DNA of 63,931 nt, counting the filler, from Sphacelaria rigidula (taxonomy: Eukaryota): NCBI GenBank assembly GCA_964200075.2. It is 8 parts of 8 records of this genome, joined end to end, with 100 filler letters (N's around TTAATTAATTAA, not from the genome) between each part and the next. Parts side by side here need not be neighbours in the genome. Positions count along the whole stretch, not along the records: positions 16,011 to 23,914 come from CAXNAA020013030.1; 7 more parts are not named here. One strand, written 5' to 3'. Shown here piece by piece: positions 3,406-55,928 of this stretch (its first letter is position 1; each line of letters opens with the position of its first letter). The notes under the pieces were generated by a model. That model did no database searches. It was not told the origin of the DNA and saw only the letters and a list, made by a program, of their open reading frames with translations. The translations under genes were made by a program, and so were the position numbers.

Positions 3406-5208
3406 TCCTATCGAAGAGTCGTACGCGAGGAAAACCCCAAAACACCCCAAAATAGTTAGGCCGCCCAATACTGTAATAGCGATAACATTGTACACGGACG
3501 GACCACCTCCCCTTTGCTGCGTTGTAGCACCTTACTGATTTTGGTACCGTGTCCCTTTGTTTTGAGTTCGCCTTCTCAGTGATTGCGTTTCTAGAACTCG
3601 CAGTCACATTTTTTGTCGCTGTTGCATTTCTCTCCGTGTCGGCTATTGACTTCTGTCGCTCAAGATCAGCTCGCCATGTGGATTCCTCCCATCACGGACA
3701 CATGAACTTCAGCAGCTTAACTCATTCATGTATTAACCTTTAGCATATACAGGAGAACAGGACCATACCCTCTCTCCACCAGAGTAGCAAAGCCAAGCCT
3801 ACTCGTCATAGAGGTCACCTATCACAGAGTCTGGCAACCAGATCCGCAACCCCACCTACACAATGTCCCTAACCTTAGGTCGCAATGGTGGCTAGAGTCT
3901 ATAACACCCTCAAAGCTCTCTACTGCCAACAAGTAGTTACATAAGAGCGTGACAAACTCAGACATTATTGGTGCCTGATAGTGCCGTCGTTTTCCGCACA
4001 GAATAGCAAGCTCTTCCGCTGCTTTCGACAACAGCTTTATGCAAGCTTGCCCCACTTCCGAACGACTCGCAAGAGATCCCGAGAAAATATCGCCCATCAT
4101 GAACATGCAATCACGCTACTTGCACCACTTCGAGTTACAAAGCGATAGCTAGCGCCAAATTCTCAAATCTTCGCCCAAAACAAGTCTCTTGACTCTTCAT
4201 CGGGACGAGATCGGAAACGTCAGCGAACGTCAAATTCCAGACCATTCGCGACTCATCGTCCCTCTCATCCGAGTCAAGGTTTTTCTCAACAGACAATATG
4301 CACTCTTTGTACGTTCAACATCTGCACAACGGAGTGCAACAGCCAAATGATACATAATCCTCACGCTAGAAGGAAATAAGCACTTAACACGTATAAAACG
4401 CACCTGGCCTCTTGCTTCTGCAACACCATAAAAACGTATGCATCGCATGCCTCCCCGCCGTCAAAGCTTCAATACTTCAACTTGCCATCATTTCATGAAG
4501 ACAATCAAAGGAAAGCCACGACTCAACCCGCTATTCAAGTCATGCATACTAAACCAACGACGGCGAACGGACCTCGACTTCCGCCATCATTGATCACCTC
4601 TCGTGATCTCGTTATCGAACTCTTTTTTTCGAGCAAATCCCAGATATATATACATATATATATATATATATCGTTTGGATCTTGGACCGTCATATCCCAT
4701 CAGTGCATCCGCCAAAATGTAGAAATAATTAATTCCTCGACACTCTTGCAGCCCACCTACACCAGTTCTTTGAACAAATGGACGCATCATCCACATGCTC
4801 CTTCTGACATGAACTAAAACCAACCACATGCTCGTTCAAACACGTGACAATCCAGACAGAAACGTGCCACAGTCAAAGGTCATTGATGCATGCGCGCATA
4901 GCGCTTTATCTTCAACCACCGGAAGCACTCGCGTCATATCTGCTCACATACGACGAGCCTACGCATTTCGTATCTTTCAGCTCATTTTCACGCTAACAGC
5001 AGGTGTCACCGTCTCCTACAGTCAGTACGAGCCCACGCATTTCGTAGTTTTTGCTCATTTTGACGCTAACAGTAGCAATCCATGTATCCTGCAGTCAGCG
5101 CGTGCAAACCGCACAATTATGATCCGACTGTGTTCCTGCGCGAACAAGATTATACGAGCTTCTCTTCATTCAGCATACAGAAGTATATTGAAAACTGCCC
5201 CAGACAAA

Positions 5209-5445
5209 TGCCGAGATAGCCCCCCCACAAAAAGTGCACGGGAGACCGTCCGACAAACCGGCTGCGGTCCCACTATTGCGCTCATTTGCAGCAATGCCGC
5301 CCACATGAAAGGCTTGTAGCAGTCCGAAATCAGCTATAACGCCCAAATAAGTCGCGTCGTGGAACACGAAGCCAGCTCTAACGGCATTTCTGAGCATCGC
5401 CTCCGTGCCCGTTTTTGGCCGGTTTGGGGGGGGGCTATCTCGGCA
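5209..5445. mobile_element. MITE with TGCCGAGATAGCCCCCCC terminal inverted repeats
   Basis: 5' end is TGCCGAGATAGCCCCCCCACAAA and 3' end is TTTGGGGGGGGGCTATCTCGGCA. A homologous 5' half lies at 55783-55928, and a possible right-end remnant at ~48-83. Confidence 0.8.
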
Positions 5446-5896
5446 GCAGTCCCCACCCTAGGTCGTCACCAGATACCATTCATATCAGTCCCATTGGAGC
5501 AAAATATCGCAGATACCTGCCAAAATTCCACTCAGCATATGAAAATCGCACATGCATGTCAATATTTCACTCAGCACATGCAATGCCACCTTCCTCGCAG
5601 CAAACACCATGCATCGTCTGTGCCAACCAGATCAGCACAACACACACATGCCAAATATCAACGTGTACGCCAGAGTTTTACCCTGTACACGCGATACGAT
5701 CATACTCGCTCAACAACCATGTTTCATGCGCAAACATGACCACAAACCACACTATTAAAAACTACAATCATTCTCAAAACGGTTCGCGAACACCAGTCAC
5801 AATGTGTTTCCTCATTCTCAACAAGCACTCAATCACCTCAGCACTTGCTCCTCAACATCAGCACCCAACTCGGCGCTCACCACATCTGCAAACACC

Positions 5897-7905: not shown

Positions 7906-8005
7906 NNNNNNNNNNNNNNNNNNNNNNNNNNNNNNNNNNNNNNNNNNNNTTAATTAATTAANNNNNNNNNNNNNNNNNNNNNNNNNNNNNNNNNNNNNNN
8001 NNNNN
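7906..8005. other. Artificial contig linker (N44-TTAATTAATTAA-N44)
   Basis: The identical 100-bp spacer recurs at 15911-16010, 23915-24014, 31919-32018, 39923-40022, 47926-48025 and 55929-56028. It carries stops in all six frames. Confidence 0.99.
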
Positions 8006-8508: not shown

Positions 8509-11500
8509 GAGGCGTGTTTCGGCGGCAACAGCAACAGCGGCAGCGCCGACGGCGGTGTGAGCGGAGGCCGCAGCACTGCTTCGTTCCGTCTCGGAAGTCC
8601 AGCGGGAGAGGACTTCCGGTTGGAGGGCCACTACCCATGCTGCGGACAAAAGGCGTACCGGTCAGTCTCGTCAGCAGAAAAGTTGATACAAACGACGCGA
8701 CCAAGGGCCTACCCGACAGTCTCATCAGAGCACATAATTCGACAACAACGACCGTAATTCGGTGAAATGTTTCAAAGCCAATAACGACAGCAGTGCAAAC
8801 AAGTATACCAACAATATTGGATACAGATCATCCCTTACGGCCATCGCGCGTGTACCCCACTTTGATGTCCCGAAGCATTTGAGTCTGTTCCCATCTCGTG
8901 ATTCATGCCATCCCCTATGATGTGGCGGTTAATAACAACGAGAAAGCAGTGCCCACTTCGCTGCATATTTCACCCTGGGATTAAAAAACAAATGCTAGGT
9001 CTTTTCCCGTTGTTTGACCGTCGCATACGCTGCGGGAGTGAGTGCAGTTTGTTTTTAGTTTGTACTGTAGATCTGTGCCGATGATGTGAACTCTGTGATG
9101 GCTTCGGCCACTGCCTCGTGATCAACTTCCTCGCGTCAAAAAGGATGGGAATTTCATTGGCATCCTGCCGCATCGCTCAGTACGCACCGTACTGTGCCAG
9201 ATGATCAACCGCACCGCACTTCCATAACCACAGGAGCCCGAGGGCATCGACTCACAAGTTGGATAACATCATGCACTGCCGTTGCTTGCAGATTCAATCT
9301 GGAGCCCCCTCCGCTGGGCTGCACGACGGGGGACCACACAACGTCGGAGGCAAACGAGGACCCGTTAGTGCTCAGAGTGCTCAGGCTTCAGAGGCACAAC
9401 ATTACCTACCAGGTGAGCGGAGCACTTGTCGTGATCGATGCGAACGAGACGACGGAGTGGCAGTTCTCGTGGAAATGCAGTAGCAGGTCGCGCTGCACGT
9501 GCCAACGTGTGTAATAGAGTATGCATCAAAGAGCAAATGGACGCGTTTTAATCTATGTCGCTGCGAGCCCTCTTCTTCCAGCAGTAGTTTCGCTGGTAGT
9601 CCCATGGGTGAAGAGAAGGTGGGGGTATCTTTCGATGGCATGGGGGGGGGGGTTCTCATGATCTCGCATCTCGCATGGCGTAGTCATTTGACATAGGTCC
9701 CGGCTTTGCAGGGATAGCCATGCCGGGAATTCGCCGGACCAGGCTCGCAATCAATCACCAAGCGTGAAGCGCCGTGATGTGTACGGCGGGTCGCATGAAG
9801 GTTGAGCTGCATCCTGCTAAGATTGTTCGGTCCGGAGCATACTGATTATCTTGCATTCGGATGACAGCCTACAATGAGTTGCTCAAGGAGGTGGGGGGGG
9901 CATGCTTCGGGGACCGTGGAACAGCCAACGAAGCAAACGGAGTAAATTGTAGACCAATCATGAGATGCATGATGGTGCCGTTTTGTGAGTAAAAAACACA
10001 CAGACTTTCACATTTATCCCCCCCTCTTGCTTGTCGAGGGACCGCAGGCAGCAGGGTACTGATTGTATAATAGTAAGTCAGACACGAAAGTAGCGTAGAC
10101 TATGTGTAGTTTGAGCGATGACCGAGGTGCTGTGTCTTTGTGTGTAGCCAGTAATGAAGAAAAAGGGCTGAACCGACTACAGAGTAGTGCGCCGTGCTGT
10201 GTACTGTGTACTGACTGTGCTGAAGGGAGCAAACGCCTTGTGCGATGCACCCCCAGAATATGCTCAAGGTGTGCGAAGCACTACCTCCAAAACTACCCAG
10301 GGTTGGTTCGACGTAGTCAGAGAGTGCTTGTTGGCGCACTTTGCTGCAGTACGATTGCGGTAGCCCAGTGGACGTCACTTGCCGTACATGAAGATGATGT
10401 GCACACCGCTCTGACTCGAAATACGGCTACATTATTTTTCTTACACTGCTTCATACATTTGCAAGAACATTGGTTCCTCATGCAATGAGCATGTTGCGTC
10501 TCAGCATCTTCGGCCCAACAATGAACAATGTCAGCATCTATCCATCTCAGCGCCCTCGCAGAGAGGACAGCTAACGATTGCCCGCAGAGAGCGAACGGCG
10601 AATGTGCACTCAGAAGCACTGGGGAATAAACGCAGGGATTTATCTTAACAGGCAACGGCGGACGGGTGCGCCTCTTTTTCTCACAGGACTGGAGAGCGGC
10701 CGTGGAAGAAGAGACTCAAGCGGCGGTCGAGAGCGTCGTGGGCAATTTAGAAGGCACCAACGGCATCACCACCAAGACCATCAATACCAATATGAACAAA
10801 ACCCCAAGGCAATTCTGCTCGACTACGACCGTGCCCACCGCCGCCAATGAACTACCCGCCGGCTCGTCGACACAAATACTCCAGCACATCCACCATTACC
10901 CGCATCACGGCGGTACTGGTGGTTCCGGTGACGCCTCGACAACCTCTGGGGGTACGCAGGGCGAAGACAGGGGGATAATGGGCGGCGGTGGCGGCAGCGG
11001 CGGCTGCGGTGAAAGCGGCGGATTAGTCGATATCACCACAAGCGAGGCGTGTGCGTCTAGTGCCGTAGGTATCGACAACACCCACCGACAGCGCAACGAC
11101 ATTGCCGATGTAACGTCCCCAGGGCAGGATGGGGGGGGAGAGGGAGGAGGGGCAAGAGGGGCAAGAGGAAAAGGGGCGCACGAAGAAGCGGCTGTTGCCG
11201 ACAGGGCGACGGGCGACCGTGATGGAAATGGTGACACTACTATGGCAGGAACACAAATGGAACAAAAAGGGGTAAAGGAGCGGACTCGCGGCGGCGGTAG
11301 TGGCGGCGGGTGTGGTGTTATTGCGGCGGCGGCGGCACCGGCGGGTGGGCAGTTCCACCCTGCTATTGCATCGCTCGGATACTTCAGACGGATCTGGGAG
11401 TTGCAGGCGTCGGAGGCATTGTCGGCAAGGGAGCGGGGACTGTTGCCGAATGAACATCCGGTGCAGATTGCCCCTGAGGTAAAGTGCAGGGCAATGTCCC

Positions 11501-15698: not shown

Positions 15699-17293
15699 GT
15701 GAGAATACTCATACTTTAGGAGGGCGCGCGCGGTGGGGGTGGGAATGCATGGGGGAGGGAAAGGGTCACTTCCCACTCAATTGATACTGGCAAGAGAGTA
15801 GGTGGTATCATTGTTCGTAGGATAGCCTGCGGTGGTCAGTAAGATACACCTAGTCAGGGCAAGGTACAACAGTCTAGTGATATACCTGTTTGAGTTCCGG
15901 GTACTACGCGNNNNNNNNNNNNNNNNNNNNNNNNNNNNNNNNNNNNNNNNNNNNTTAATTAATTAANNNNNNNNNNNNNNNNNNNNNNNNNNNNNNNNNN
16001 NNNNNNNNNNGCCCCATGTGCCCGACAAGTGGGCAACATCCCCGTACAGACAGTAGCAATGCTAGCGGATAAAAGATCCTGACAGTCTGGTAGCAGGCAA
16101 GGTAGTTATGGTAGTGCCCTTCTACCGATATCAACTTACAGTGCACTGCTGTAGACTTCATCGGTGAATATTTTGGCGATTGCCTCACCCGCAGTTCGCC
16201 CAGATGTAGTGGATTTTTCCACGATCTCACCGCACCAGATTATGTGTGAAAATGTATCAGATCCTGCATTATATGTTGAAATGTCCCAGACCCTGGACGA
16301 AGATTCTACAGTCAGTACGAACACGGTATTCAAAGTGTACTGCGCACAGCATAAAATATAGTGCCGACTATAATTTGTATAACACTCGTACCTCAAGTCG
16401 GTGACTGCAACGCTACACTTCGAGACAACAGTGTGTAAAAATATCCAGGGTATGAAATGCTACAGGCGACGTTCGCGCCATAGCGGCTGTGTTTATCATA
16501 CAGCTTCACCCAAGATACAGGCAGCCATGACAGCAGCAGAGGCAGCCCTTCACTCCTGCGTGCGCCACCTGGGGCAAACGCACGCTGTAGCTGCAGCACG
16601 GAAAGCTTTACAAAATGTGTCGTCGCGATATAGGGCATAGCGAAGGGTGATATCCCGCGTACACGTTGACCGCAGATACAAGCGGTTGCGTGCATGATGT
16701 GGCAAACTGCATAGGACAGCGCGAAATCAATGCAGCACAAGGATAGGCTAAGGATGTGACGCTCTGTGGTGTGCTTTTTCACTCTGCACCCTGCCGCTGT
16801 GCAGTGAGCAGGTAGTACCACCGAAGGCGTAACCCCGCGGTTGGTACGCAGTGTCGAACACATAGCAGCAAACAAAATATTTAATGTACAACAGACAAGG
16901 ATGTGTGTTTCAAGACCGATGTGCACAGAGTGGGACCCGTATCTAGATAACCCTGCACCAACTCGCCTTGTTCTAGCGGATACAGAAATCTTTTCAGCAA
17001 AACCTGCTTGCGACGTGTGCTGTAACGAATCTCATGCGTAATGCAGCTTTCTCCCATGTGCGGCATCGCCCGTGAAGCGAGCTATTGAGGCTAACAATGT
17101 CTAACCCTCTTCCCACGATGACCTCCTGTCTGAGCTCGAGATAATTGAAACTGCGGAACATGACTTCAACTGGTAGAACGTACACTTCACCGTCATACAC
17201 CGCCTCCATAACATTGAAAAGGAATAACACTGTGAAGCACAATCTTTTAGGATTTGAAAATTCATGGCAAATTTAAAGTGTCACCGCTTGTAT

Positions 17294-17600
17294 GTAACGT
17301 AATATGGAACGTTTAATGTAACGTGTAACGTCTACTACACGTTATACGAGCTTAGATGTTAGACGTTACACGTTCTATGAAACGTTTTATATCACGTGTT
17401 TTGAACGTTCGGGCAATTTAACGTTCACGTTACGTTACGCATGTCACGGAAAAAAAAATCACGTTACGTTAACGTTTCATTTGAAAATTTGACGTTACGT
17501 TGACGTTACGTTCATCACGTGTTTTTTTTTACGTTCACCTTACGTTTCGGCCAAAAAGTAACGTGTAACGCTATGGTACGTGTAAAGTGTATATCCTTGG
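17294..17600. repeat. ACGT-motif-dense tract, probably a subterminal region of a non-autonomous DNA transposon
   Basis: I counted 25 ACGT cores in ~290 bp, mostly as TAACGT/ACGTTA variants. The tract ends ATATCCTTGG. Confidence 0.6.
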
Positions 17601-18117
17601 GAAAATATTGTATCAACATTTATGTTTACAGATAGTGATGAAACCATCGTTGCTGTGGAGGTCGTGGAACTCCCGGTGACGGTAGCAACCGTCGAAGGTG
17701 GTCGATGATTTTCCTCGTGCTATGTAGTCAAGGATTGACATTAAGTCGTGGGGTTTAGATTAGTAGATCAAATGGGAGAGCTCGACGAGCGCGAGCAAGT
17801 AACCCAGAGGTTCTTCAGGGTTAGCCAGCAGTTCGCTGGAAACTGTTACCTTGCGGTCCCAGATCCGGCTGTACAGATATGGAAGTTCCGGGGCTCCCGG
17901 GAACTACCCCTGTGACAGCCGTTCACGAGGTTACGCGTCATGAAAGGAAATCTCTCCGCACATGCCAAAAAGGCGATCTCCACCTTCCCCCCGGAAAGAT
18001 ATTTTTGTTGCAGAAGAAGTGGGCATGTGTTCGTGTAAGCGGAGCGTTGCAATCTTGGTAGCTCATGAGTAGGAAAGCACGCTTGGTCACATCAAATTCA
18101 ACACAAGTGCTTCTCAC

Positions 18118-21100
18118 CTGTGTGCCTTCCGGGGAGAGCTGCCCCCCTTCCTCGCGCCAGCCGTCCCACCCCCGACCTCTTCGCGCCTCGTCGACTCCTC
18201 CGCCGTGTGCCTCTAGACCGGATGACAGAGACTTCAACTGGGACTATTTTCACGCAGTTGTCGCGGCAGGAACAAGACAAACCGGCACCAAAAATGTGTT
18301 GATGATCTCGCATCGGACAATGAATGAGTCGTGTTGTCCTCGAACGATGTTTCGAGTTACCTTCGCCTCCCTTTGAGTACTGTCGTATCACCAAAAGGTA
18401 GCGGTGTTTCCTCAGCACGATGTCAACCGTTGGCCGCCAGGCTGGATCATCTGCTGAATCGGTATCATTTCACTTGAAACGTGACTCCCTAACCCAGATT
18501 ACTCATTCACCCTGGCGGGCGGTCACAGGGTTAACGGCATCAATGACGGGACAGCTACCGAAGGTGATCAATTGGCGGAGAACACAAGCGTAACCCCTTC
18601 CTACTTTTTTTCCGTCGGGAGAGACAGACGGTCAAGTCAGGAAACGGATCAACTAACGCACACCTCCCCTTACAAGTACGCATATGCACCAGTCCCAACA
18701 GGCGAATCAAATCGTATACAGTGCAAAATGATGGGACAAAGGAACGCAACCGTGTGGCTTCCACGAGCAACATACCCTCCCTCACCTTCTCGAGAGACAG
18801 AAGAAGTGCCGCCTCTGTGAGAAGAGGAAAATGTTTCTCCGGTCTCCGTCGCGCGAGCGCGCTGAACGGTTCCATCAGAACCTTCAGATCTGCCCGCAGC
18901 TGGAGACCCTGTGCGTTCAGTGCGTGCGCGTGTGGACGTGTGCCACCACAAATGCGGGAATGTAGGCGCAGCGTGTATGAAACAAACCTTTTGTGAATTG
19001 CCGGTAGCCCCCGTAGCTCAATCGGCAACCTCTGAACCTCTTGAAGTTCAGAATTTAGGTTCGAATCTGAAGCCACACGATCTGGGATTGTTTTCCACAT
19101 CATGCCCAACAGTGGAGAGAGACTACAGTAGTCAGCGTCAGAAGTATGCAGAATTCGTAATTTCTTGATTTCTCGGAGATTTTCCAGATTTGTTTTGCTT
19201 GCCACCGCCCATCACAGTGACTGTTGGATGCCAAAAAATGGGCATCTGGAGATATTTTAATCCTCTTTTAATCACTGCGTTAAAGCCGGAAAAACCATGT
19301 TTCTTGGACCATCTACAGTCAATAACACCCTCTTCATAGACGGAGTCTTAATTCCGAACCGCCCCCACAACACCAACTTGGGCATTGTGATTTGAGTACG
19401 GTCTGCTTATTTTGCCAAAACTATCGACGCTAGCACTTTCGGGTGCTTATGGAAAACGTTATGCGAAAAAAACGAAAAGGGGTCATCCGCAGAAAATGCT
19501 AGACTGAGGTATATGCAGTATAGGAGGGAAACACGATCTCGATCGTTATTGTGAAGAATTATATAAATATTCATTCATCTGAATATTTACCGTTTCGTTA
19601 CGGAAGAGCCGGAAAACTGCTTTCATTGGACCAAAAACGGTCAATAACACCCTCCTGATAAACGGGGTATCTAGTCCGTATCGCCCTAAAAACACCAACT
19701 TGGGCACTGCAGTTTGAGCGCGGCCTAGGCTTTCCCCCTACCGGCGCTAGCACTTTCAAGTAGTAATGAAGAATAGGACTTGAGAAAAACTCAAAAACTG
19801 CAACAACTACGGATTCTGAAAACTTCTGATGCTGACTACTTGTATACCGAAAGGTATAGACTGGCGTCCGGGATAAATGGGATGACAAAACACACACACA
19901 CACCACATACACATACCCTTTCATTGATGGCCATATTCAAACTGTTCGAGTGCCCCTAATCGCTCTCCGAGTACGTGCTATTTGCCAGCACTCGTTTGTT
20001 GTTGAGGGCCAGTGAGAGTTCAAGTATAGGGTGGAACTCGTCCCCATCACCGCCCAGACACTCGCACGGCTACGCGATAAAGTACAGGTGATGCACTGAA
20101 CGAATAAAAATCACCTCGTCTTGGGTCACTTCCTGCCTCCGGGGCACAATTTGGTTGAGTACAACCGCATCCAGCTCGCTCGCCAGGCCAGTCCACCATT
20201 GGCGGAACTGTGGCTGCTCGAACAAGTGCGGTGGTTGACGCGTAAGATGGGGAGGGGAGGAGTAAGGGGCGACCACGCAGGAAGCAAAAGGGAAGAGGTT
20301 TGTGGAAGTCCCCCACTCCGTCATCCTGTACACAACTTTTCGTTGCGCTCTTGATATGCGCGCCCGATTTGCGCCCTCTTCTCCATCCTCGGCCGCCGCC
20401 CCTCTCAGTTTGTTGTTCATGTCTCTGTATCTGTTTTCATCTCTCCGGGGCCCTGTCTTTCTCCCTGTTCCCTCCTCTTTTGATAGCTTTACTTACAAAC
20501 TCACCGACGGTAGCGCTCCTTCCGCTACCCTCATCGCCGTAAGCAATAGATCTATCCCGACCGCTAGCTTCCCAGAAGCTTCCGCCGCCGCGGCTGACAG
20601 CCCCGCCGCGGCTGACAGCCCCGCCGTGGCTGCAGGGACAACAACAGCTAACCCCCGGTCCCAGGAACGCAAATATGATCTCGTGCACCATAAAAAGCCG
20701 TCACGGCAGGCCTGCGACGACAACCCAACACATTCAACAAGGAAGATCAACTCGTTACCAACAGAGAAGACAAACCGTGGGGAACATCACCCCCCCTCCC
20801 CGTCGAAACTAGTGCTCCGTCTCGAGAGGGATGCGTGGTCAATGGTCAAATGACTAAGGCAAGCAACAAATGAGTACGCCCCCCCCCGTCGAAACTAATG
20901 GTCAATGGTCTGATGACTATGGCATGCATGATCATGAGTACACCCCCCCCCGTCGAAACTAGTGAGTCACGAGCACATGAGACGGGAGAGGTACGAGTAC
21001 TCCAGGAGTCTTCGCGGAGGAGGGGTGGGGCGGGGTCATGACTGCGATTTGAGCCCTGGCCCTTTCTACTGCGCTCGTACCCACCCCTTATCCCGTGAAG

Positions 21101-22893
21101 GGTCTCTGGGGTTTCCCTGGGGTGTCCCCTGGTGTGTGCCTGGTGCGGCTGTATGAGCCCACGTCCTCCCAAAACCCGACGCACGAAATGAGTACGGTAC
21201 AGCAGACACGCCCAAACAACAATTCGACACTCACAGCTATCGCACTCTGCACCATGGCGTCCCGCATGAGCCCGTATCTTTCAGCCTCCTCCCCGAACAC
21301 AGACCCTCCCCCATCCACTTCGCCGTCCCCTGCCACCGCGGTAACCGCCTCCGCCCCGCCGGCATCAGCGATACCACCACCGCTCTTCTCCGCTGCAGCC
21401 CCAGCAATAGCAACAGCGACGTCTTCCCGTTTCGGTACACCGCTCACTGCCGCAAACACAACCGTGGTATCACGTCCACTCTCGCCGCTGTGCGCATCGG
21501 CCTCTAGCGCGCTATACCCGGCTACGACGAAATTTCGATCTCCTTCCCCGCCACCGCCCATACCGCCGTGAGAATCCGCAGCGCCTGCTCGGGGCAACCC
21601 GGTCGAACCACTGACGACATCATCTTCGGTGAGTGTCGCTTCTGCATCGGGGGTCTCACCATCTGCGGTAGGAGCGCCTGAATACGAAGCGTGTCGCACG
21701 ACCCGGCGCGCGGCGCGCGTTGCGCCTTGTAGCGTGGTGAGGGCCGCGGAGATGGCGTGCGTGGGGCCGATGATAGTGTTGGTCTGCGTGTTCCCTCCTA
21801 CGGCGCGGACGACGCCTGCTGTCGCTGCATTTAGTGGTTGACGATGTGTGAGGGGAAAAGAAGGAACATGGGATGGTGGAGTGATGCCGCGATAGCCTTT
21901 CCCCTCCCCCCCCCTCCACCCGAGAAAAACTGCGGGTCTGAGGAGGCAAAATCTACATACGAATCAAAAAGACAAAAGCCGAGCACACCGAGTAGTTGGG
22001 AAATCCCACGCTGGGGATCATTTTTGTCAATGTTGCCCATGCGAGGTGCTCCATGCAGTCTAAACCCAGGTGTCATGCGCTGAATGATCATTTTTTTCGT
22101 GACAGTTTTGGGGCTGGTTTCGGGGATAGCAACCGCGGCTTCACTCGATGGAAGAAGCGAGAGGGCGGGAACGGATGGAGACGAACATTATGTATGCAGG
22201 AGACGACTGAAGAAAGATGAATAGGAGAGGCTGCTTAAAGCACGGCAAACATGCAGGAGTCCCCAGGGGAGATGTGTATGATATTGCCACAACTATTGAA
22301 CAACGATAGGGGAGGGTACTGTTCTAAACTTGGTGTTTAAAGCATGACCTTTTGATGCATATGTACTCGATACGTGCCATACAACACGAGATGCAGACAG
22401 GAAACGATCCGGTCACTTCCCACACGAGTGTGCCAACAACAAGGCGCTGTATAGACACAGCGTTTCGGCTTGTTGAGTTCGTGTACGAATCCGATCAGCA
22501 GTCCGAGTATGCAGTCACCGTCTTGTGGATGATCTACATGGCTCTACAGCACGCTATATGAAAAGGTTGTATCTCCAACGTTGTTCCAAACAGCAGACAA
22601 CTACGGTACACCACGTCGACTTAGCATACTACATTCTACAGCAGGGGGCGCCGGGATAATGTACCAGGTGAACCAAACATGAGCTGCGAAATCCAACAGA
22701 TATTCTTCCGGTTCACTGGTGACTCCGATTCTACAAGATATGAATTGAATTGCAGTGAACGACCTTTTCTTGCGATACCTGTCTCCGCGCTGGTAGCGAC
22801 GGTCGTTACCGCTTGCGAAACGCCCCCAACTGCAGCCCCTACTACCGTTCCCACGGCCGCTAAGGACGCCGATGTTGGCCCCAGGCTCGCCAC
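18118..22893 (-). CDS. RINT1: RINT-1/TIP20/MAG2 family tethering-complex subunit, C-terminal part, spliced
   Basis: Exons are 22893-22779, 21824-21235, 20711-20505, 20213-20115, 18908-18786 and ~18237-18118, with AG/GT boundaries and matching phases. The peptide ACRDGFLWCTRSYLRSW...GIDLLLTAMRVAEGALPSPQFRQWWTGLASELDAVVLNQI...GLQLRADLKVLMEPFSALARRRPEKHFPLLTEAALLL matches the RINT1/MAG2 C-terminal pattern (F..W..LA..LD; RPE..FP.L.E...LL). The last exon was not found. Confidence 0.8.
19003..19125 (+). mobile_element. tRNA-headed SINE, diverged 5' part (RINT1 intron)
   Basis: It has a TAGCTCAATCGG A box, a TCTGAAC-loop-GTTCAGA stem and a GGTTCGAATC B box. These are followed by TCTGGGATT...ATGCCCAACAGTGGAGAG.GACTA, shared with the 13431 copy. 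Confidence 0.65.
20812..20951 (+). mobile_element. Two stacked, extremely 5'-truncated non-LTR 3' ends (family A then family B)
   Basis: 20812-20878 matches the LINE terminus at ~33503-33569. About 20898-20942 matches the family-B terminus. The two pieces are separated and flanked by three copies of CCCCGTCGAAACTA. Confidence 0.8.
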
Positions 22894-23139
22894 CTGGGAA
22901 CGGATAACAACAGTCCGACGCACCCATTCGAAAGCAGGACATAGCACTTCCGTAAAAACTTGAATACACTAGGAACGGATGCTCTCAAAATGTTCACAGA
23001 ATCTCGGCACGGCGAATCAGTATTGCAACGGCCGCCTCTCGCTGTACATTGCCTATACCCCCATACTACAGGACAGGGGGCAGGTAGAGGTACGAGAGTA
23101 CTAAAACGAACCAAAACCACAGTCTCGTGGGGGCGGGGG

Positions 23140-23914
23140 CGGGGTGGGAGGGGTAGTCATGATCTTGTATGCCATAGTCATATGGCCATTGACCTCGCAT
23201 CCCTACAAAGCGGGGACCAAGCACGCCGGTTTTTCGCCGGACCAAGTTCGCAATCACCAAGCGCGAAGCGCCGTGATGTGCTCCGTGTTCACCGTCACAA
23301 GGGGGGGGGGGGGGGGGGTAAAGGGGACTGATCTACTTCCCCCGTTCCCTCCCACATATGCACGGTGCTCCGTCTCGAGAGGGATACGGGGTCAGTGATT
23401 AAACGACTAAGGCAAGCAACAAATGAGTACGCCCCCCCCCCACACACACATACGCACACACCTCGCTGGCTGTGCTTGCTCCGGCGGCAGATGCTTTTAC
23501 CGCCACCTCGCTCATCTCCGCAAAAAGCAAGTCGTCCTCAGAATCTCGCAGAACGGCGCACACATACGCACACGAAGAAGCTGCCAAGCAGTAGCTCCTC
23601 CATCGCCCAATCGGAGTCTTCAAGGTTTGCCGTTACACCGCCAGGGGAGGGGTGGGGTGGGGATCAAGTAACGCAAAGCAGACAAACTTTGAGGCCGAGC
23701 CAGGTGACTTTATCAAGTATACCCTTGAAATGCGTAGGGGCACGAGGAGAAACGGGGGGATGGGAAAGAGGGGGGTACTCACGGTATTGCATGTTGTAGT
23801 CATCAGACCATTGACCTCGCATCCCTACAAAGCCGGGACGGATCACGCCGGGTTTTCGCCGGACCAGGCTTGCACTCAATCACCCAGCGCGAAGCGCCGT
23901 GGTGTGTTCGACGA
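23140..23914. mobile_element. Cluster of truncated non-LTR 3' ends: family B (-) 23140-23290, family A (+) 23363-23440, family B (-) 23765-23914
   Basis: Direct sequence similarity to the other copies. Each ends next to a G/C homopolymer run. Confidence 0.75.
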
Positions 23915-26771
23915 NNNNNNNNNNNNNNNNNNNNNNNNNNNNNNNNNNNNNNNNNNNNTTAATTAATTAANNNNNNNNNNNNNNNNNNNNNNNNNNNNNN
24001 NNNNNNNNNNNNNNCGAAAGGTGTAGACTGGTGCCCAGAATAAATGGGACGACAACACACAACACACACACACACACGAAGGAACCCAGTACCTACCCTG
24101 GGCGCATCGCTCCAACCCCTCGGGTGCACAAAAAATGCTCCATTCTGTGCAGTTGGGTTCCGGTATTCTCTGTGAGGTCTTCTCGTTGACGATAATCGAG
24201 GGACGATGATGAGTGCTTTCTGTTCAGCTACAGCATGACCTACAAACAACGCTTACGTCAAAGTCGCCCATGTACTGTCCTGTAATCGGATAATGTCGCT
24301 TTTAACCGTCAGCTCTCGTGTATCTTGGAACTCAATCCATTGAGCGTGGCGGTGCAAGCGCCCGAAACCCTTTCCCGTACATACACACAAACCAATCCAT
24401 ACCGTGTCAATTGCATGCCCCCTATTATCTACAGGTCCTTGTACCCGCTTACGCGATGAATCCAATCACGTAATGTCTGGTTCCTCTGCTTATCACCCTA
24501 CAAAATTGGGATGGTGTTTTTCTGAAGGTTGCAACATGGGTTTTAGGAGACCTTGACCGGGACTCTGGGTCTCGTCGGGAAGCTTACTCTTTTCCTCACA
24601 GCCCTCATATATCAACCTCTGCTGTCACGAACACATTTTGTATACAGCGATCTTCGAAAATCGGGAACAACTTGTGTACAAGGAGTGGACAATATCCTAG
24701 AATGCGTAACAGACAAAGCTGCAACGCTGGTTCATTGGGCGCGCAATTCAACACAGTGTATGCAAACGGGCACGACCAGTCTCGGCAACAACGAGCTGTG
24801 TTCTTTGAAAACATGCTCACCTCTTGCGCTTCATCTGCGCAGATGGCCACGAATACGGCGCTCTGAAGCGTTGACAAATGCCGAACGAACGAGACAGCGT
24901 AACATGGAGACGGTAAAAGTGAAAGAGGGGACGTGTGGGACAGAGGGGGATGGCGGAAGGAACGGGAGACGTGGGGGGGGGGGGGGGGGTCAAGACTCGT
25001 AGATATTTGGGTGGGGTGCTTGGGACCCTGCTGTAGTCTAGATGAAATGCAGCGTACTATACCGACATAGCCCCGTGGGCTTCAAGGAGCCGGTAGGGTC
25101 ATGATTTTAGAAACTTGCGAAACACGAACCGGGGGTTGTCTCACAAAATGCCAGACAATGAAAAGCAATTATTCCGTGAAAGAACAAAATGCTATTCAAC
25201 TATCGCCGAGGTAAAGGGACAGCCGAACCCTTCTGTCGATAAAAATTGAGGCCATCACCGCAGGAGGAAAATAAAAAAACACCCGCGTGACTTCTTCCTG
25301 TGTGACCCCAGCTGGTGCGCTCCCATACACCGGATGGTGTACAGCAGGCGTCGAGAATAAATGGGAGAAGAACATACACCAGTGCAATATACGTTTTCAG
25401 AGCATGATATTTGGGTTTGCCCAGCATTTTGGTTTTGTTGACAACTAGATACAATCATCAGTGCATGGAAACACTTCCTTTTGAAGAATGCGACAAAGTG
25501 GAGGGGTGGACGTATGTCGTCGAGAGAAACCTGTGAATTGTTCCCGTCGAAGTCCACAGGAAAGTTCACCAGTGTCACACATCCTGCAAACGAACCTGTC
25601 ATGCCTGACCACACTACCGGAAATAAATTCGAAGATGGACAATGTGGCGAAAACCCGTGAATTGGATGGTGTTGTTCCTGCTGATGCTACAGCACCAGCA
25701 TAAGCGGCCAACATATACACATTATGTAAAAGATGAAACAGAAACTATTACCTACTAGCTTTACGTGAATCATTCAAGGCACCACGCGCGGCTAATTTAC
25801 GTAAATGTAAACGCGATAATTTGTAAAAACGAACAACAGTATTTCAACACGGCTACACACACTACGTGCATCATACCCACCACCGTACCGAAACAGAGGA
25901 CCAAAATATCGAAGAAACGCATGAAGAGGCGCCTACGCACGAAGTCAGTCGAAACGATTGACAAGGACGCTCGGTAAGATTAAATAGATCCCAACCCATT
26001 CAGCAAACAAGAGACCGTCTGTTATCAAAAATACTCACGGAGCCGTTGCTGCTGACCAAATCAGACACTAGGTCATCTTGATCCACTTCACACAGGCTGC
26101 CCTCCACTCTCATCTGGAACTCTGTCACGGTATCGGTACAATAAACAAGAGATATATACATGAGCAAGACGAAACAAGGCGGGATGGGCAGAATGCGGTC
26201 ACTGACTTCTTCAAATGCCACCCTCTTGCTGCACCGAAACCTTTGAGAAAAACATTGACATCATGCGCAGCAGTGAAAGAACAAACCGAAAACAGAATGA
26301 GCCACGCACGCTAATGAGGAAACTTGCACTGGGGCACTTGATCATCATCCATTTTAAGGGCATTCACACATCTGTGGTTGGACATGCCCACTATCTTCGC
26401 TCGACGGGATCAGATACGATGTGCTGCTACTGCTGCTGCTGCTCTTGCTGCTCCCGTAAAATTCTCCCGAATGGAGAACGTGCTAGGTGCATTGCGAAAA
26501 ATGGAGAAAAATCGAAGCATAGAAACGGTGCACACACGGAGCTGGGCTAGCACGAAACTTGGCGCTCTCACCCCGTATTGCAATCGGCGGAGAGGACGAC
26601 CTCTGTCTCTTCCTCTCTCGCTCCTCCACATTCCTGAACGTTCAAAAGTAAGCAAGTAAATGCAGAAGCGGGATGGGGAAGAGCTTGAATGCAGCATCAA
26701 ATGGCCGCTCGTTTTTCTTACGCCATATTGAGAGTGTCGTAATGAAGTTTCAATGCCACTTATTGCAGATA

Positions 26772-31340: not shown

Positions 31341-32899
31341 GGTGGTCTGGATTACCCTAGTACTGCAGGTTGAGAGGATGGCTGTAGTATGCTGACTGCG
31401 TGGTAAAATTACGTCGAGAATAGTGCAAGAGGCGCCGAACCATGCGAGATGCTTACACAGTCTCCTCTTTGGCTTGACTTCCGTCCTGCGCACGATTTAG
31501 TCGTAACTTTTTGGCTCGAAAAAAAAGTGGCGTCCTCTGGGGGGGGGTAGGGGAGTAGGGGTGTTGGTTAAGAAAAAACGTTTTTCGGACCGCCTTGGTC
31601 CCAACTCGGAAAGTTGAGAGATGCGTGCCTATATTTGCAGATACTACTGCGATATCGTTCCGCATGCAAACTTACATACAGTACGAGTACAGGAGGGGAA
31701 GTGTTTGGCTATCGCTTTCGAACTGTACTGGATCACAGAATAGTCAGTGACCCCGACATCCCGTTCTTTTCTCGCATCGAGGTCCAGGAGTTGGGTCAAA
31801 AAGTTGGAATCATTTACGATATACTATAGTAGTCAGCATCAGAACTTTTCAGAATTCGTGGTTGTTATTTTTCTGAGTTCTTCTGGAGTACCGTTATTCA
31901 CTACTACTTGAAAGTGCTNNNNNNNNNNNNNNNNNNNNNNNNNNNNNNNNNNNNNNNNNNNNTTAATTAATTAANNNNNNNNNNNNNNNNNNNNNNNNNN
32001 NNNNNNNNNNNNNNNNNNTCCTGATCCCCCCCCCCCCCCCCCTCTCTGGATCGTCGTCATTGCTGTGTTATGTGGGCTTTGTTGGTCTCCCGTCACAGTG
32101 GATAGTATATGTAGACTAGTGGAGGTTCCAGTGTACAGGGAAGATTTACCACAAGAGGGTGTTTTAGCCACGGGTATACCCAGCAGTTTCTGTGTCTGCT
32201 CAATTAAATACTTGTGGTCTAACAGGTTGATCAAAGCAGTACCAGGTAGGTGGGTAGTTGCTTCGTTGCGTCCACAATAACGGCACGAGCTTATGAAGGC
32301 GGCCGTTGATTTCTCTGTTCCCATCGATCAGCCCATATCTCCGCACCATGCGTACATTGACTGCGTGCTTCGCACCAAAGACCCTTCAACTAGAGTATGC
32401 CAAACCAAATACGTCAACAAGCAAGCCAACCAAATATAAGGTGAACTGGTTGCAAATTCATGACGCAAAAACGTTCGTACAGAAAATGACAAAAATTTCC
32501 CACTGAACATCACAAAACCACTGCCATTTTAGAACAGAGGAAGAAACAACACAATTATCCATGCACTTGACTCATATTTGGAAAAACAGCCACTCATGTC
32601 TTTGCCAAAATCCGAAAGAATTGATGGAATAAAAAAAGAAAAGTGAACAAACCCTCATGAGCCCAATTTTATTGTCCCTGTTCTTCTGCACGGATCTCAT
32701 GACCGCAATTATACTCTGCCACATACCCACACAGAACGCGAATATTGTATCACCACCTCCAGCTGAAACAGATACCGCCTCAACACACAAGGCAGCATTA
32801 GATACTCTGGCGCTCCTTTTGTCATAGTTCATGAGGCTGTGTGGAAAAACATTACAAAAGGGCGGAGGGGAAAAAGGTGGGATAGAGAAGTCGAGAAAG

Positions 32900-33576
32900 T
32901 ATGAAAGGAGATATCGGAAACCAAGACGAAATACTGTCCATAGGTGAACGCACGGGGTACAAGACAAGGAGTAAGAGACATGATGGTAATAGAGAAAAGG
33001 AGCGCTCAGACGCAAAGTAGACGAGGGAGAACACCTGAAGATATACGGGGGGTTGAGAGAGGGGATAAAGATGAAAACATGTTCGCATGGTCCAATGGAC
33101 GCGCCGAAAAAATTAAAACTGCGATTTCGGTTGGGGAACCTGGTCCTGCCAGAAAGAAGGAAGAGATTTACACGTAGTCAAGAAGAGGAGGAATTAGATG
33201 CACAGGATTGCCCCGTGGCAAGGCAATGGCGAGCAGAAGTCATATGGTGGCAGAATGTGAACTATACAAAGAGGAGTGGGACGTGCTAAAGGGGGAAATG
33301 CGGGACGTGAAGGAAGGTGGCATGAAATGGTTTGATGCATTAGACGGTAGCAAAAAAACGATCGCTATACTAGAAGATAGATGGTGGCCACAAAAGATGG
33401 AACAGGTTGGGGATGAGATATGTAAAAGGTTTTCGTGCGATGAATGCAAGAAACGCAGTGAACACCGGAATGTTAAAGGTGTCTCTATTAGGAGTAGGAA
33501 CGGTGCTCCGTCTCGAAAGAGATGCATGGTCAATGGTCGAACGGCGAAGGCAGGCAACAAATGAGTACGCCCCCCT
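32900..33576 (+). mobile_element. 3' end of LINE ORF2 (family A), frameshifted
   Basis: The peptide reads HLKIYGGLREGIKMKT..HGPMDAPKKLKLRFRLGNLVLPERRKR...DCP/RGKAMASRSHMVAECELYKEE (degenerate C-terminal zinc knuckle)...DRWWPQ...CMVNGRTAKAGNK*. It is immediately followed by GTACGCCCCCC. Confidence 0.8.
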
Positions 33577-35344: not shown

Positions 35345-35554
35345 AGCGTCCATTCACTGTTGTACCGCGCTATGAAAAGTGTGGGGGGAATGTGTCGAGG
35401 CCGGAAGGTCGAAATGCTGCTGTTCACATAGTAGCTGGATGTGCCTCAAACACTTGATGTTTTCGTAACACCAGGTTTTCCTCTCCTGCCCCCAAATTCC
35501 TCGCGCCTTGCCCATGCTGATTATATTTCGGTGGCTGCGTTGTAATGCTTGCAG

Positions 35555-39274: not shown

Positions 39275-40499
39275 GTAGAAAGGTGGCTGTGTCTCGCAAT
39301 TGTATTTTTGTAGTATTCCAAAAAGATGGGTAGTCTGTGATTACGAATATGGGTATGCCGTACATGGTGATATTTGCGATGTACGGCACGACCAAACATT
39401 CGGAAGGAGCCGACTCACGTGGTCAGGAATCTACGTTAGTCGGAGAGCAACCATCACATTAAAAAAGGAAACACTAATGTAAGTGTAAGGTGAAGCGTTG
39501 CTCTACATCTGGGGATCGCAAAACGGGAAGTGAAACATTCACGAGAGGAGTGAGATAAATCGGAATAGCGAGGGAATTTTGGCAAAAAAATGGGCCATTT
39601 GGTGTTTTGGGATATCTTCTTTCGGCAGGTTCAAAATGAGCGATTGGTCACAGAGATAACTTTGGTCACTTCGATGAAACTATCAGTGTTCGTCCGAGAC
39701 GGCGTCGTCGATCATGTTGCCGCGAAGGTGACAGAAGTAACCGGTGCCCCCCCTTAGCCTTGCCTTCCCCTGTCCACTCCACCTCAGATTCCCGTGTTGC
39801 ATCGTCATATCGCGATACCTCACCTGCCCCCATCCCCTCTCCCACTTTTTTTTTTTCACCAGGAGGTACTTTCGAATGGTTGAATTTATGCCAGAAGAGT
39901 TCCTTAGCACCCCCCCCCCCCCNNNNNNNNNNNNNNNNNNNNNNNNNNNNNNNNNNNNNNNNNNNNTTAATTAATTAANNNNNNNNNNNNNNNNNNNNNN
40001 NNNNNNNNNNNNNNNNNNNNNNCAGGCAAAAGAAATCGTGAATTTGGTGATTTTGAGTCGTGATGATTTGTCCTAACCGTGCAAGCTTTTCTACTTCGTG
40101 AATGGCCCATTGTGACGAGTATGGCAGTTTCGATGGACGATGAATGTCCCACCGCCATGGTATTTACTTTGGACTGAACGTGACCATGGCGGTGAAGGTG
40201 GGCGTGGTTCTTTTTCGTTCCGCTATGAGCTCTGAAGAGGAACAACGGTTTTCAGAGTCAAGTGGTGCAAACGGCACTCTGACTCTGAAAAAATCGCTCT
40301 GAAGAAAACTTTAAAGCGGAAAGTGCACCGTTACCGGCTATATTTTTCCTTCCACTCTGACTCTAAGATTTGAAAAAACGTTTTCCGAAACTCTCTATTA
40401 TATACCTCTTTTGTCATCCTTTCGATTCTCCGTTCAGGACACGAAAATACAAATCTCACCACAAAGATGGACGTAGCTACCGTGCCATATATTCACGTG

Positions 40500-55300: not shown

Positions 55301-55782
55301 CGAGTTACGTACTGTAGTACGACACGCGTGGCGTGCCTTAGCCCTCTTCACCCGAGTAATGATAGTCATAAATCGATACATCAACCGGCGGGTTACAAAG
55401 AAGTCTGCAAAAATGAGTAGTCGATTACAACACATCCGCAGCTGTTGCTACTGCTTGCTGCCTCTGTGTTCCTCACCTGTAGGCCGCAGCTGCATGGCTA
55501 CACGTTCGCCGTTCCCTTGCCACATTCGTTTCTTCACTACCGAGCCTCAACTGCGACTATATGTCGGAGTTGATTGTCTCTGTGGCGTCGACTACAGATC
55601 TAGCGAGGGTCGTGTATCGTCAAAAGAAATAAAATAAAATAAAATGAATCATGCGACTTTCGAGCAGTGCGATGGGCGACGGGCATATTTCTGTGAGTAT
55701 TTAATTGGCGTGATCTACTGGAAGGTACATATTCTCCAACACAAATACCCTCACAAAATGGAAAATGAATAACACGGACTCA

Positions 55783-55928
55783 TGCCGAGATAGCGCCCCC
55801 ACCAAAAGTGCACGTGAGACGGTGCGGCAAAACGGCTGCGATCCCACTATCGGGCTCGTTTGCAGCAATTTCGCCCAAATGAGAGGCGTGGAGCAGTTCG
55901 AAATTAGCTATTACGCCCAAATAAGTGG
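55783..55928 (+). mobile_element. 5' half of the MITE seen at 5209-5445 (cut by contig end)
   Basis: TGCCGAGATAGCGCCCCCACCAAAAGTGCACGTGAGAC...CAGCAAT...ACGCCCAAATAAGT aligns with the 5209 copy. Confidence 0.8.

Follow-up and report, generated by a model that had tools for sequence, protein, structure and literature searches.

Two retroelement tails stacked at one C-rich site in Sphacelaria rigidula: a probable double insertion by a C-tailed LINE and its non-autonomous partner

We analysed a stretch of 63,931 nt from Sphacelaria rigidula (the window), a composite of eight pieces of ~7.9 kb connected by linkers of the form N44-TTAATTAATTAA-N44. The site described here lies in the piece spanning positions 16011–23914; related copies at 9642, 33570, 57102 and 59234 are located in other pieces and are not neighbours of the site. 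The word CCCCGTCGAAACTA is found in three exact copies in the window, at 20798, 20884 and 20948, all on the + strand, and a fourth match is absent from the window with up to two mismatches allowed. The chance expectation is 0.41, and none of 100 shuffles yielded three or more matches. The triplication is thus exact and exceeds chance. The arrangement reported by the initial annotation, with 67 nt of one retroelement tail (family A) between copies 1 and 2 and 45 nt of another (family B) between copies 2 and 3, was confirmed (Table 1). Taken as target-site duplications (TSDs), copies 2 and 3 are identical at 19/19 nt, all nine C's included. Copy 1 matches both exactly over 14 nt and differs in the C-run itself, which reads C7TC4 versus pure C9.

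Table 1 Features of the focal site and further copies of families A and B in the window
Feature	Position	Strand	Description
5′-truncated family B copy	9642–9883	−	C8 9 nt upstream of 5′ junction; C11 after tail
TSD copy 1 (5′ flank)	20790–20811	+	C7 T C4 GTCGAAACTA; T interrupts C-run
Family A tail, 67 nt, 5′ truncated	20812–20878	+	GTGCTCCG...ATGAGTACG; end of RTE-X-like LINE
TSD copy 2, including putative (C)n tail of A	20879–20897	+	C9 GTCGAAACTA
Probable family B tail, 45 nt, 5′ truncated	20898–20942	+	ATGGTCAATGG...ATGAGTACA; end of ~520-nt non-autonomous unit
TSD copy 3	20943–20961	+	C9 GTCGAAACTA, then unique flank GTGAGTCACG
5′-truncated family B copy	23140–23283	−	C18 17 nt upstream of 5′ junction; C-rich 25-mer after tail
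Second family A tail, ~70 nt + C10	23362–23441	+	Probable TSD C-rich + ACATA(T/C)GCAC
Family B copy cut by piece end	23768–23914	−	Tail + C6TCTTTCCCATC6
Decayed longer family A copy + C6	32824–33575	+	Last 247 codons, CCHC-like motif, stop in TGAGTAC
Full-length family B unit	57099–57614	−	Head ATCAGGGTTGGCGTTGGTTGGCAAC, tail GTGAGTAT + C9, C-rich 5′ flank
Head-to-tail array of three family B units	59233–60487	−	Middle unit internally deleted; spacers only ATCTCT or ACCCC

Positions 20814–20870 constitute the last 19 codons of a LINE open reading frame (translation APSREGCVVNGQMTKASNK), followed by the stop codon TGA at 20871–20873. This stop codon forms part of the terminal heptamer TGAGTAC and lies 5 nt upstream of the C-run, so that family A has no 3′ UTR. 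The LINE origin of the tail had been recognised by the initial annotation, which did not notice that the tail is the end of the reading frame itself. Since the heptamer contains the stop codon, the presumed recognition sequence of the reverse transcriptase doubles as coding sequence.

Of the 19 residues encoded by the focal A tail, 18 agree with the C-terminal end of P0009/P0004. P0009 (1360 aa) contains an Exo_endo_phos domain (170–414) and an RVT_1 domain (740–989); P0010, a further relative of the family A protein, has 1328 aa, and the two relatives of the family A protein that carry names come from brown algae. P0011, a protein of Ectocarpus, shares 71% identity with P0009 over 455 aa and has the same terminal residues. 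An intact copy is present in the public contig L121, where an uninterrupted frame of 1382 aa spans residues 1–1360, with its stop in TGAGTACG followed by C13. Over 76 nt, the tail of this intact copy (L120/L121) and the focal A tail agree at 98.7% of positions. In a search for the TSD of the L121 copy, the word at the 3′ flank was found only once in the 5259-nt contig and no C-run was found in the 5′ 1.6 kb; the 5′ end of this copy is probably located off the contig.

A single reading frame with the endonuclease before the reverse transcriptase is seen in the relatives (P0009, L121), and the window itself holds the last 19–247 codons. Pfam searches of the window reading frames (42 of at least 150 aa and 239 of 80–149 aa) gave no reverse-transcriptase or endonuclease match. 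Using tblastn with P0009, we detected a C-terminal fragment at 32824–33561 (aa 1114–1360, 43% identity) and a reverse-transcriptase fragment at 346–732, showing that Pfam had missed decayed copies. All three copies of family A in the window end in TGAGTACG followed by C6–C10 and have no poly-A tail, as initially proposed; a LINE of the L1-like poly-A type is rejected on these grounds. Judged by its protein relatives, family A represents the protein-coding 3′ terminus of a non-LTR retrotransposon with endonuclease and reverse transcriptase. The complete element would consist of one long reading frame comprising an N-terminal region, an AP-type endonuclease, a reverse transcriptase and a CCHC-like C-terminus, and would end in ...AAC AAA TGA GTAC R, followed by a (C)n tail.

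Family B is a non-coding unit of ~520 nt that has only the last 60–90 nt in common with family A. Its head is defined in three copies of ~470–530 nt (57099–57614, 59233–59764 and 60020–60487). The B tail contains GATCATG, with one extra base compared to A, and has no stop codon in the frame of A. The focal 45-nt tail matches the A tail at 35/45 positions and the B copies at 32–36/45, so that overall identity does not discriminate between the families. Two features make its assignment to family B probable: the extra base in GATCATG, and the B-type upstream sequence (..GGCTTTGTAGGGATGCGA) that forms the consensus of loose ends before 20900 in contigs of four sequencing runs of this genome (X9, X1, X11 and X12). 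The proposal that the two tails derive from different families thus holds. Rather than being another LINE, family B is a short non-autonomous element, presumably copied by the enzyme of the LINE.

A strict SINE with a tRNA, 5S or 7SL head was considered for family B and rejected. There is no Rfam match at gathering score in the whole window, ARAGORN predicts one tRNA-Gln in the window (62499–62580), outside every B copy, and no Pol III features were found in B. A hammerhead-like CTGATGA in the B tail was also discarded; it is not kept among the B copies and has no Rfam match. RNAalifold predicts 0 pairs for an alignment of 10 tails, single tail folds give z-scores between −0.41 and +1.08 and thus no support for a 3′ stem-loop, and a closing helix GUGCUC/GAGUAC in two A tails performs no better than shuffled sequences. 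A dinoflagellate origin was considered and given up after homologues from brown algae had come to light; introns of the cytochrome c1 gene are of the GT-AG type, and the spliced-leader motif is absent with up to three mismatches allowed. Outside the window, a search of metagenome contigs with ATGAGTACNCCCCCC returned 118 loci (5/64 parts), none of which holds the element by blastn; these matches are due to chance, the pattern being too short. A 20-nt A-tail pattern gave 0 matches in viral contigs.

We compared the sequences flanking all copies. Read on the element strand, each of the seven other copies listed by the initial annotation is followed, as claimed, by a C-run or a C-rich tract (9642, C11; 23140, C-rich 25-mer; 23432, C10; 23770, C6TCTTTCCCATC6; 33570, C6; 57103, C9; 59234, C6TC6). 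The exceptions are two tails inside the tandem array, near 60020 and near 59765, which are followed by ATCTCT and ACCCC, respectively. The 5′ junction is definable in five window copies, and in 5/5 of them at least five consecutive C's lie within 30 nt upstream, a feature shared by 3.4% of background positions (p ~5e-8 if independent). The suggested targeting of C-tracts is borne out by these junctions, and the TSDs of the corresponding Ectocarpus elements are curated as "C-rich" in a supplementary table entry (PMC12477816). TSDs of the older copies are imperfect (A at 23362, B at 9642) or not identifiable (B at 23140 and 57099). Among related copies in other public contigs, whose boundaries were set by eye, a B-like head in L142 is preceded by 60 nt devoid of C-runs, and a LINE fragment in L122 has no C-run near the start of the protein similarity.

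The initial annotation had further regarded the C-run following each tail as target DNA. According to this model, the elements end in TGAGTAC(R) and are tailless, the nick is placed at the 5′ edge of the C-tract, and all C's are duplicated target. The 5′ and 3′ tracts are indeed similar (C7TC4/C9; C5GTTC3TC3/C10; C8/C11; C18/C-rich 25-mer), the identity of TSD copies 2 and 3 extends through all nine C's, and long C/G runs occur often enough to provide targets, with 17 runs of at least 12 nt in 63 kb versus 3 A/T runs. However, the change from C7TC4 before the A tail to pure C9 behind it is unlike a simple duplication, and the 3′ runs are purer than the 5′ runs in the two clearest cases. In the runs X9, X1, X11 and X12, the consensus of the loose ends past 20951 and 23441 consists of 10–17 further C's, beyond the nine of the window at the focal site, before unrelated sequence is reached. 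The intact L121 copy carries C13, and the curators of the Ectocarpus elements count "(C)n 3′" as part of the consensus (PMC12477816, table entry). Together, these observations argue that part of the run belongs to the element, and we consider the tailless model unlikely. At least part of the 3′ C-run would then be the element's own (C)n tail, pairing with a C-rich target, where the division of the run between tail and target is our estimate from the sequences at hand.

Two separate events of target-primed reverse transcription at one C-rich site, carried out by a LINE and non-autonomous pair of the brown-alga RTE-X kind, are in our judgement the likely origin of the site, in line with the two independent insertions first proposed. 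The A and B tails are identical at 35 and differ at 12 of 47 aligned columns, an indel included, whereas the adjoining 19-nt duplication is identical; 19 unchanged bases at such divergence have a probability of ~0.004. This contrast, together with (i) the preserved LINE frame and stop codon of the A part and (ii) the family-B extra base of the B part, whose start is matched by contigs that continue upstream as B, makes it extremely improbable that a single insertion was followed by local tandem duplication of tail and TSD and by later divergence or gene conversion, even though positions 20836–20904 and 20899–20969 align at 84.5% over 71 nt in the shape of a direct repeat. We regard as equally remote a single event in which the reverse transcriptase switched from B RNA to A RNA. 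Such a switch could account for the head-to-tail B array, where units follow each other almost without spacer, but the focal tails are separated by a complete local target, C9GTCGAAACTA, which an RNA-to-RNA switch cannot make; this internal copy refutes the switch at the focal site.

We examined the contigs of the four runs for support of each junction. The left outer junction is contained in X9 record 25, which runs to 20839 with no differences, and the right outer junction in X9 record 26, which starts at 20926, also with no differences, as well as in X1 record 2 and X11 record 10. No listed contig of the four runs bridges 20840–20925, and the succession of A tail, TSD copy 2 and B tail in the middle is that of the window assembly. 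A and B elements are very abundant in the genome, and the extreme repetitiveness of their tails is reflected in the 137,760 contig pieces that X9 contributes to the 3.9-kb stretch, mostly in tail bins. An artefact in which reads from different copies of this abundant repeat were collapsed or chained would be in keeping with the repetitive tails, inside which all short-read contigs break. We nevertheless judge it very unlikely, since both outer junctions are present in contigs without differences and the TSD copy between the tails is locus-specific and would not be supplied by chance chaining of foreign copies. The listed joints include some in which a C-run and ~12 other letters precede an A tail starting at 20811–20813; these joints are further stacks elsewhere in the genome. 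A joint that skips the insert, corresponding to an empty site, is not found among the 15 joints listed.

Starting from the preferred history of two target-primed events, we propose the following sequence of steps. The endonuclease would nick the bottom strand in the G-run, the complement of the C-tract; the 3′ end of the G-run would pair with the C's at the RNA end and prime cDNA synthesis, and the top strand would be cut ~10 nt past the C-tract (0–17 nt among the window copies). With the top-strand cut at this distance, the duplication would consist of "some C's + about 10 nt" and the 3′ C-run would be part tail, part target. In the most likely order, the A insertion came first, through a nick in the C4 beside GTCGAAACTA, and left C9 downstream. 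B would then have hit this newer and purer C-run, again followed by the same 10 nt, giving rise to the perfect 19-nt duplication. That two elements are followed by the same 10 nt behind the same C-tract argues that both nicks were set by sequence and that the target was renewed by each insertion. Stacks and tandems are expected if every insertion restores a target for the next. What the sequences show is the layout of the site, that A is coding, that C-rich tracts precede the elements and that A is related to proteins with endonuclease and reverse transcriptase. Priming by pairing, the succession of the two insertions and the copying of B by the LINE are inferred, and the nick positions are deduced from one filled locus and a few old copies.

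A more far-reaching version of this scheme is possible, and we put it forward only tentatively. The endonuclease could be a nickase specific for C/G homopolymers whose second cut always falls ~10 nt past the tract, and the (C)n tail could be lengthened by primer/template slippage in each round. In that case, the family would generate its own targets and extend them, could be the main source of the striking excess of long C/G tracts in this genome, and could seed DNA prone to i-motif and G-quadruplex formation genome-wide.

The focal site represents a clean natural example of stacked insertions into one C-tract site. For annotation, C-runs beside TGAGTAC mark these elements, and gene models running into PPPP... 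represent read-through into the tail (P0006, P0008). LINEs that carry a poly-C tail and seek C-tracts depart in a little-known way from the poly-A/T-rich scheme of L1.

In L1-type LINEs, the poly-A tail pairs with a T-rich nick site. Family A resembles L1 in its homopolymer tail and complementary nick site, in the ambiguous boundary between tail and TSD and in 5′ truncation. Pairing of a tail with the complementary homopolymer leads to TSDs that begin with the base of the tail, and the same logic would apply here. Unlike L1, the tail of family A is composed of C instead of A and does not originate from polyadenylation, a single reading frame extends almost to the end of the element without a 3′ UTR, and long C-tracts stand in the 5′ TSD copies where L1 has a few bases. 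Like family A, LINEs of the RTE clade have one reading frame, hardly any 3′ UTR and, in place of poly-A, a short 3′ repeat that probably aids priming; the tail of family A is a C homopolymer, whereas RTE-clade tails are tri- or dinucleotide repeats.

The initial annotation had left open whether poly-C targeting was already described. For the brown alga Ectocarpus, elements of such kind have already been listed in a table supplementing PMC12477816. It is the only source returned by our literature search, which yielded no main-text account of poly-C-tailed non-LTR elements. So far, such LINEs are recorded as notes of the Ectocarpus curators, and their mechanism is without study. In supplementary file 1, RTEX-1_Ec32 is described as "single EN-RT ORF; (C)n 3′" with a "C-rich" TSD and RTEX-2_Ec32 by "(C)n termini/TSD", while RTE-1_Ec32 has a (CAA)n 3′ end (PMC12477816). 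Compared by these table descriptions, family A is like RTEX-1/RTEX-2_Ec32 in its single reading frame with endonuclease and reverse transcriptase, its (C)n 3′ end and its C-rich TSD, and in being abundant and mostly truncated. The stop codon within the terminal TGAGTAC is seen here and is absent from the RTEX-1/RTEX-2 table entries. Family A would accordingly be of the RTE-X kind, as suggested by the curated description and by the 71% identity between P0009 and P0011, the latter being a protein of unstated family. Among the non-autonomous partners, RTEX-N1_Ec32 (607 bp) is listed as nonautonomous with "60 bp 3′ end 83% RTEX-1/RTEX-2" and "can be present in tandem", and RTEX-N2_Ec32 comprises 188 bp; PMC12477816 leaves their SINE status undecided. 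By description, family B (~520 nt) is like both in being short and non-coding, in sharing only its 3′ end with the LINE and in its C-rich TSD, and it is like RTEX-N1_Ec32 in its tandem occurrence, as represented by the array at 59233–60487.

The 14-mer CCCCGTCGAAACTA has three exact matches in the window (20798, 20884 and 20948) and no near-matches elsewhere in it, and three copies were reached in 0 of 100 shuffles, which bears out the triplicated word claimed by the initial annotation. TSD copies 2 and 3 are identical over all 19 nt; copy 1 shares its last 14 nt with them, and its C-run is broken by a T. The focal block lies in the piece 16011-23914, one of eight ~7.9-kb pieces joined by seven N44-TTAATTAATTAA-N44 linkers, and adjacency across linkers is therefore not genomic. 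Three piece ends lie in C-runs (8006, 39922, 47925), as if contigs broke at homopolymers.

Focal block, element copies, linkers and other features, in window positions
Feature	Position	Strand	Sequence or remark
TSD copy 1	20790-20811		C7 T C4 GTCGAAACTA
Family A tail, 67 nt	20812-20878		GTGCTCCG...ATGAGTACG
TSD copy 2	20879-20897		C9 GTCGAAACTA
Family B tail, 45 nt	20898-20942	+	ATGGTCAATGG...ATGAGTACA
TSD copy 3	20943-20961		C9 GTCGAAACTA
Unique flank	directly after 20961		GTGAGTCACG
Family A copies	20812-20887, 23362-23441, 32824-33575	+	n=3
Family B stretches	9642-9883, 23140-23283, 23768-23914, 57099-57614, 59233-59764, 60020-60487	-	n=6, excluding the 45-nt + strand tail at the focal site
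Linkers	7906-8005, 15911-16010, 23915-24014, 31919-32018, 39923-40022, 47926-48025, 55929-56028
Nuclear cytochrome c1 gene fragments	35469-36604	+	Pfam Cytochrom_C1, E 7e-13 and 6e-24
Ubiquitin hydrolase (UCH) exon-like ORFs, sulfotransferase-like ORF, tRNA-Gln(TTG)	46454-47005, 42769-43065, 56890-57159, 62499-62580	-
Inverted repeat pair, ~200 nt apart	5208-5260 / 5400-5446	+ / -	GCCGAGATAG + C7/C9 + CAAAAA..GCACGG

Positions 20814-20873 translate into APSREGCVVNGQMTKASNK followed by a stop, and the longer A copy (32824-33575) into ...SRSHMVAECELYKEEW...GVSIRSRNGAPSRKRCMVNGRTAKAGNK and a stop. A protein search with the frame of the longer copy gave 6 proteins at E <=0.01 among 65 candidates, one with RVT_1; of these, just one has a named source, the brown alga Sphacelaria rigidula. 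With the RVT_1 protein as query, a second search gave 210 proteins at E <=1e-10 among 4537 candidates, the best being P0009, of 1360 aa and 90% identical, and P0010, of 1328 aa. In each, Exo_endo_phos precedes RVT_1 and the sequence ends ...APSRKG(C/R)VVNGQMTKASNK; family A therefore represents the 3' terminus of a non-LTR retrotransposon whose endonuclease is of the AP type. The terminal TGAGTAC supplies the stop codon (its TGA), a mildly interesting arrangement, and with nothing but GTAC(G) between ORF and C-run, family A has no 3' UTR. Two database proteins, P0006 and P0008, read through into PPPP..., the translated C-run. In two predicted brown-alga proteins, P0003 and P0011, the C-terminal part of the LINE is fused to a host domain or to a different retroelement (Lipase_3; Gypsy-type RT/RNase H); these fusions are probably gene-model artefacts from inserted LINE ends.

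A tblastn search of P0009 against the window found three regions, 32824-33561 (aa 1114-1360), 20814-20870 and a decayed RT fragment at 346-732, all missed by Pfam on 281 window ORFs. Within 346-945, this RT fragment, which is of the same LINE kind and covers aa 813-949 of P0009 before an internal deletion, leads directly into C28 (737-764). Its final 88 nt recur as a near-copy at 855-942, with C17 behind it and a scaffold gap (846-854) in between.

A 20-nt A-tail pattern matched two records in genome_contigs and none in viral_contigs. Both are contigs filed in bacterial MAGs and plainly algal DNA. One, L121, has an uninterrupted 1382-aa frame spanning the whole of P0009 (1360 residues, 88% identity), with the LINE stop in TGAGTACG, then C13; over 76 nt the focal A tail matches this copy at 98.7% identity, and the focal A insert is therefore young. 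The other MAG gave 11 B-like matches. The contigs L119-L146 of these MAG records (G001, G002) are eukaryotic and alga-like and carry LINE and B-like elements (10 LINE-protein and 11 B-like matches in one MAG), which indicates binning contamination.

All A and B copies have ...TGAGTAC at one end and a variable opposite end, the pattern of 5' truncation, and A and B resemble each other only over the last 60-90 nt. Three B copies, each about 470-530 nt, share the head ATMAGGGTTGRCGTYGGTTGGCAAC; at 59233-60487 three B units form a head-to-tail series in which no more than ATCTCT or ACCCC separates a tail from the following head. Two of the three A copies (20812, 23362) start within 3 nt of one another, ~67-70 nt from the 3' end, and in contigs from other loci (joints 20951->20813) A tails begin at the same base after a C-run and ~12 nt. 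This recurring start reflects either truncation at a preferred point or a ~70-nt mini-element.

Part of the locus is present in twelve sequencing runs, with labels including 'algae metagenome', 'protist metagenome' and 'marine metagenome'. We aligned Logan contigs of four runs to 20000-23900. Run X9 alone placed 137,760 contig pieces there, most densely in the tail bins; although summed depth does not equal a copy number, the abundance of the family is clearly very high. Behind 20951 and 23441 the consensus of loose ends gives 10 to 17 more C's and beyond them unrelated sequence. Some half of the contigs reaching back past 20812 go on as LINE (...GGTGTCTCTATTAGGAGTAGGAACG), and before 20900 they show family B upstream (...GGCTTTGTAGGGATGCGA). 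Contigs without differences contain both outer junctions of the focal block: one X9 contig reaches 20839 and another starts at 20926, with starts at 20929 in X1 and 20930 in X11. Among the matches listed for the four runs, neither a contig spanning 20840-20925 nor an empty allele at the focal site was found. A tandem 18-nt unit (CCGCCGCGGCTGACAGCC-like) at 20567-20620 is one unit short in X1 and X11 (18 nt missing at 20585); the sequenced samples therefore differ.

The 45-nt tail is identical to B copies at 32-36/45 and to the A tail at 35/45, and its assignment is thus not based on overall identity; the extra base typical of family B and the loose-end consensus point to family B. The A and B tails are identical at 35/47 positions with one indel, whereas the adjoining 19 nt are identical throughout. 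A tandem duplication of tail plus TSD as the origin of the second insert is unlikely, because, at the tails' divergence, 19 bases would all stay unchanged with a probability of only ~0.004; moreover, the A part retains the LINE frame and stop and the B part the family-B base. A template switch between two RNAs in one event cannot explain the block, as it has no way to put a local target copy between the tails. As initially proposed, the block is thus best explained by two independent insertions with tails from two families. Most economically, A came first: A would have inserted at the C4 adjoining GTCGAAACTA, adding about five C's, and B would then have entered the newly formed C9 at its 5' edge, producing the perfect 19-nt TSD. 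Since GTG stands both after the TSD in the flank and at the start of the A tail, the 5' junction of A can be placed only to within 3 nt. The reuse of one 10-nt stretch by two elements is mildly interesting.

In favour of the target reading, all 5 window copies whose 5' junction is definable and non-tandem have a C-run of at least 5 within 30 nt upstream, compared with 3.4% of window positions; from C-tract end to junction the distance is 0-17 nt (about 9-10 nt in three cases). The focal site has a clear TSD and A23362 a probable one (C-rich + ACATA(T/C)GCAC); that of B9642 is plausible, and none was identifiable in the flanks of B23140 and B57099. Speaking against generality, C-runs are absent from the 60 nt upstream of a B-like head (L142) and from where similarity starts in a decayed LINE fragment (L122), both boundaries being judged by eye. 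In favour of a tail of the element's own, the 5' and 3' runs are asymmetric: C7TC4 in TSD copy 1 versus pure C9 in both 3' runs, and likewise C5GTTC3TC3 versus C10 at A23362; long pure C-runs also occur in the contig consensus and the intact copy. The initial reading of the C-run as target DNA therefore stands only in part, the run being target and element tail at once; the observation as a whole is confirmed and the interpretation largely right. Target and own tail fit one mechanism, in which a nick in a bottom-strand G-run would let this G-run pair with the C's at the RNA end, the C analogue of the poly-A/T-rich pairing of L1.

Long C/G homopolymers are in excess in the window (17 runs of at least 12 nt, up to 41, versus 3 A/T), whereas runs of 8-11 nt are equal (17 C/G versus 18 A/T); most long C/G runs do not adjoin a recognisable A or B tail. 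This excess is mildly interesting. The cytochrome c1 introns are GT-AG, one with a G13 run (36309-36321), and the sulfotransferase-like ORF overlaps the 3' flank of a B copy. The GCCGAGATAG repeat, with a related copy at 55782-55926, differs from A and B and also carries a C-run.

The literature searched yielded no main text that describes poly-C-tailed non-LTR elements. Poly-C targeting, of which the initial annotation could not say whether it had been described for this lineage, is nevertheless already catalogued for brown-alga RTE-X elements (PMC12477816). The present locus is a neat example of it in what is probably a further brown alga. The Ectocarpus main text names the non-autonomous RTEX-N1, about 600 bp and with a 3' end related to RTE-X LINEs, as the most abundant family (PMC12477816). 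Supplementary file 1 of that study lists RTEX-1_Ec32 ('single EN-RT ORF; (C)n 3'', TSD 'C-rich'), RTEX-2_Ec32 ('(C)n termini/TSD'), RTEX-N1_Ec32 (607 bp, '60 bp 3' end 83% RTEX-1_Ec32/RTEX-2_Ec32', 'can be present in tandem', TSD 'C-rich') and RTEX-N2_Ec32 (188 bp); the terminal (C)n of RTE-X contrasts with (CAA)n in the RTE families and (CA)n in CRE. P0011, from Ectocarpus, and P0009 share 71% identity over 455 aa and have the same terminal residues. By these table descriptions and protein identity, Ectocarpus RTE-X is alike in all tested features: ORF plan, (C)n end, C-rich TSD and a tandem-forming short partner.
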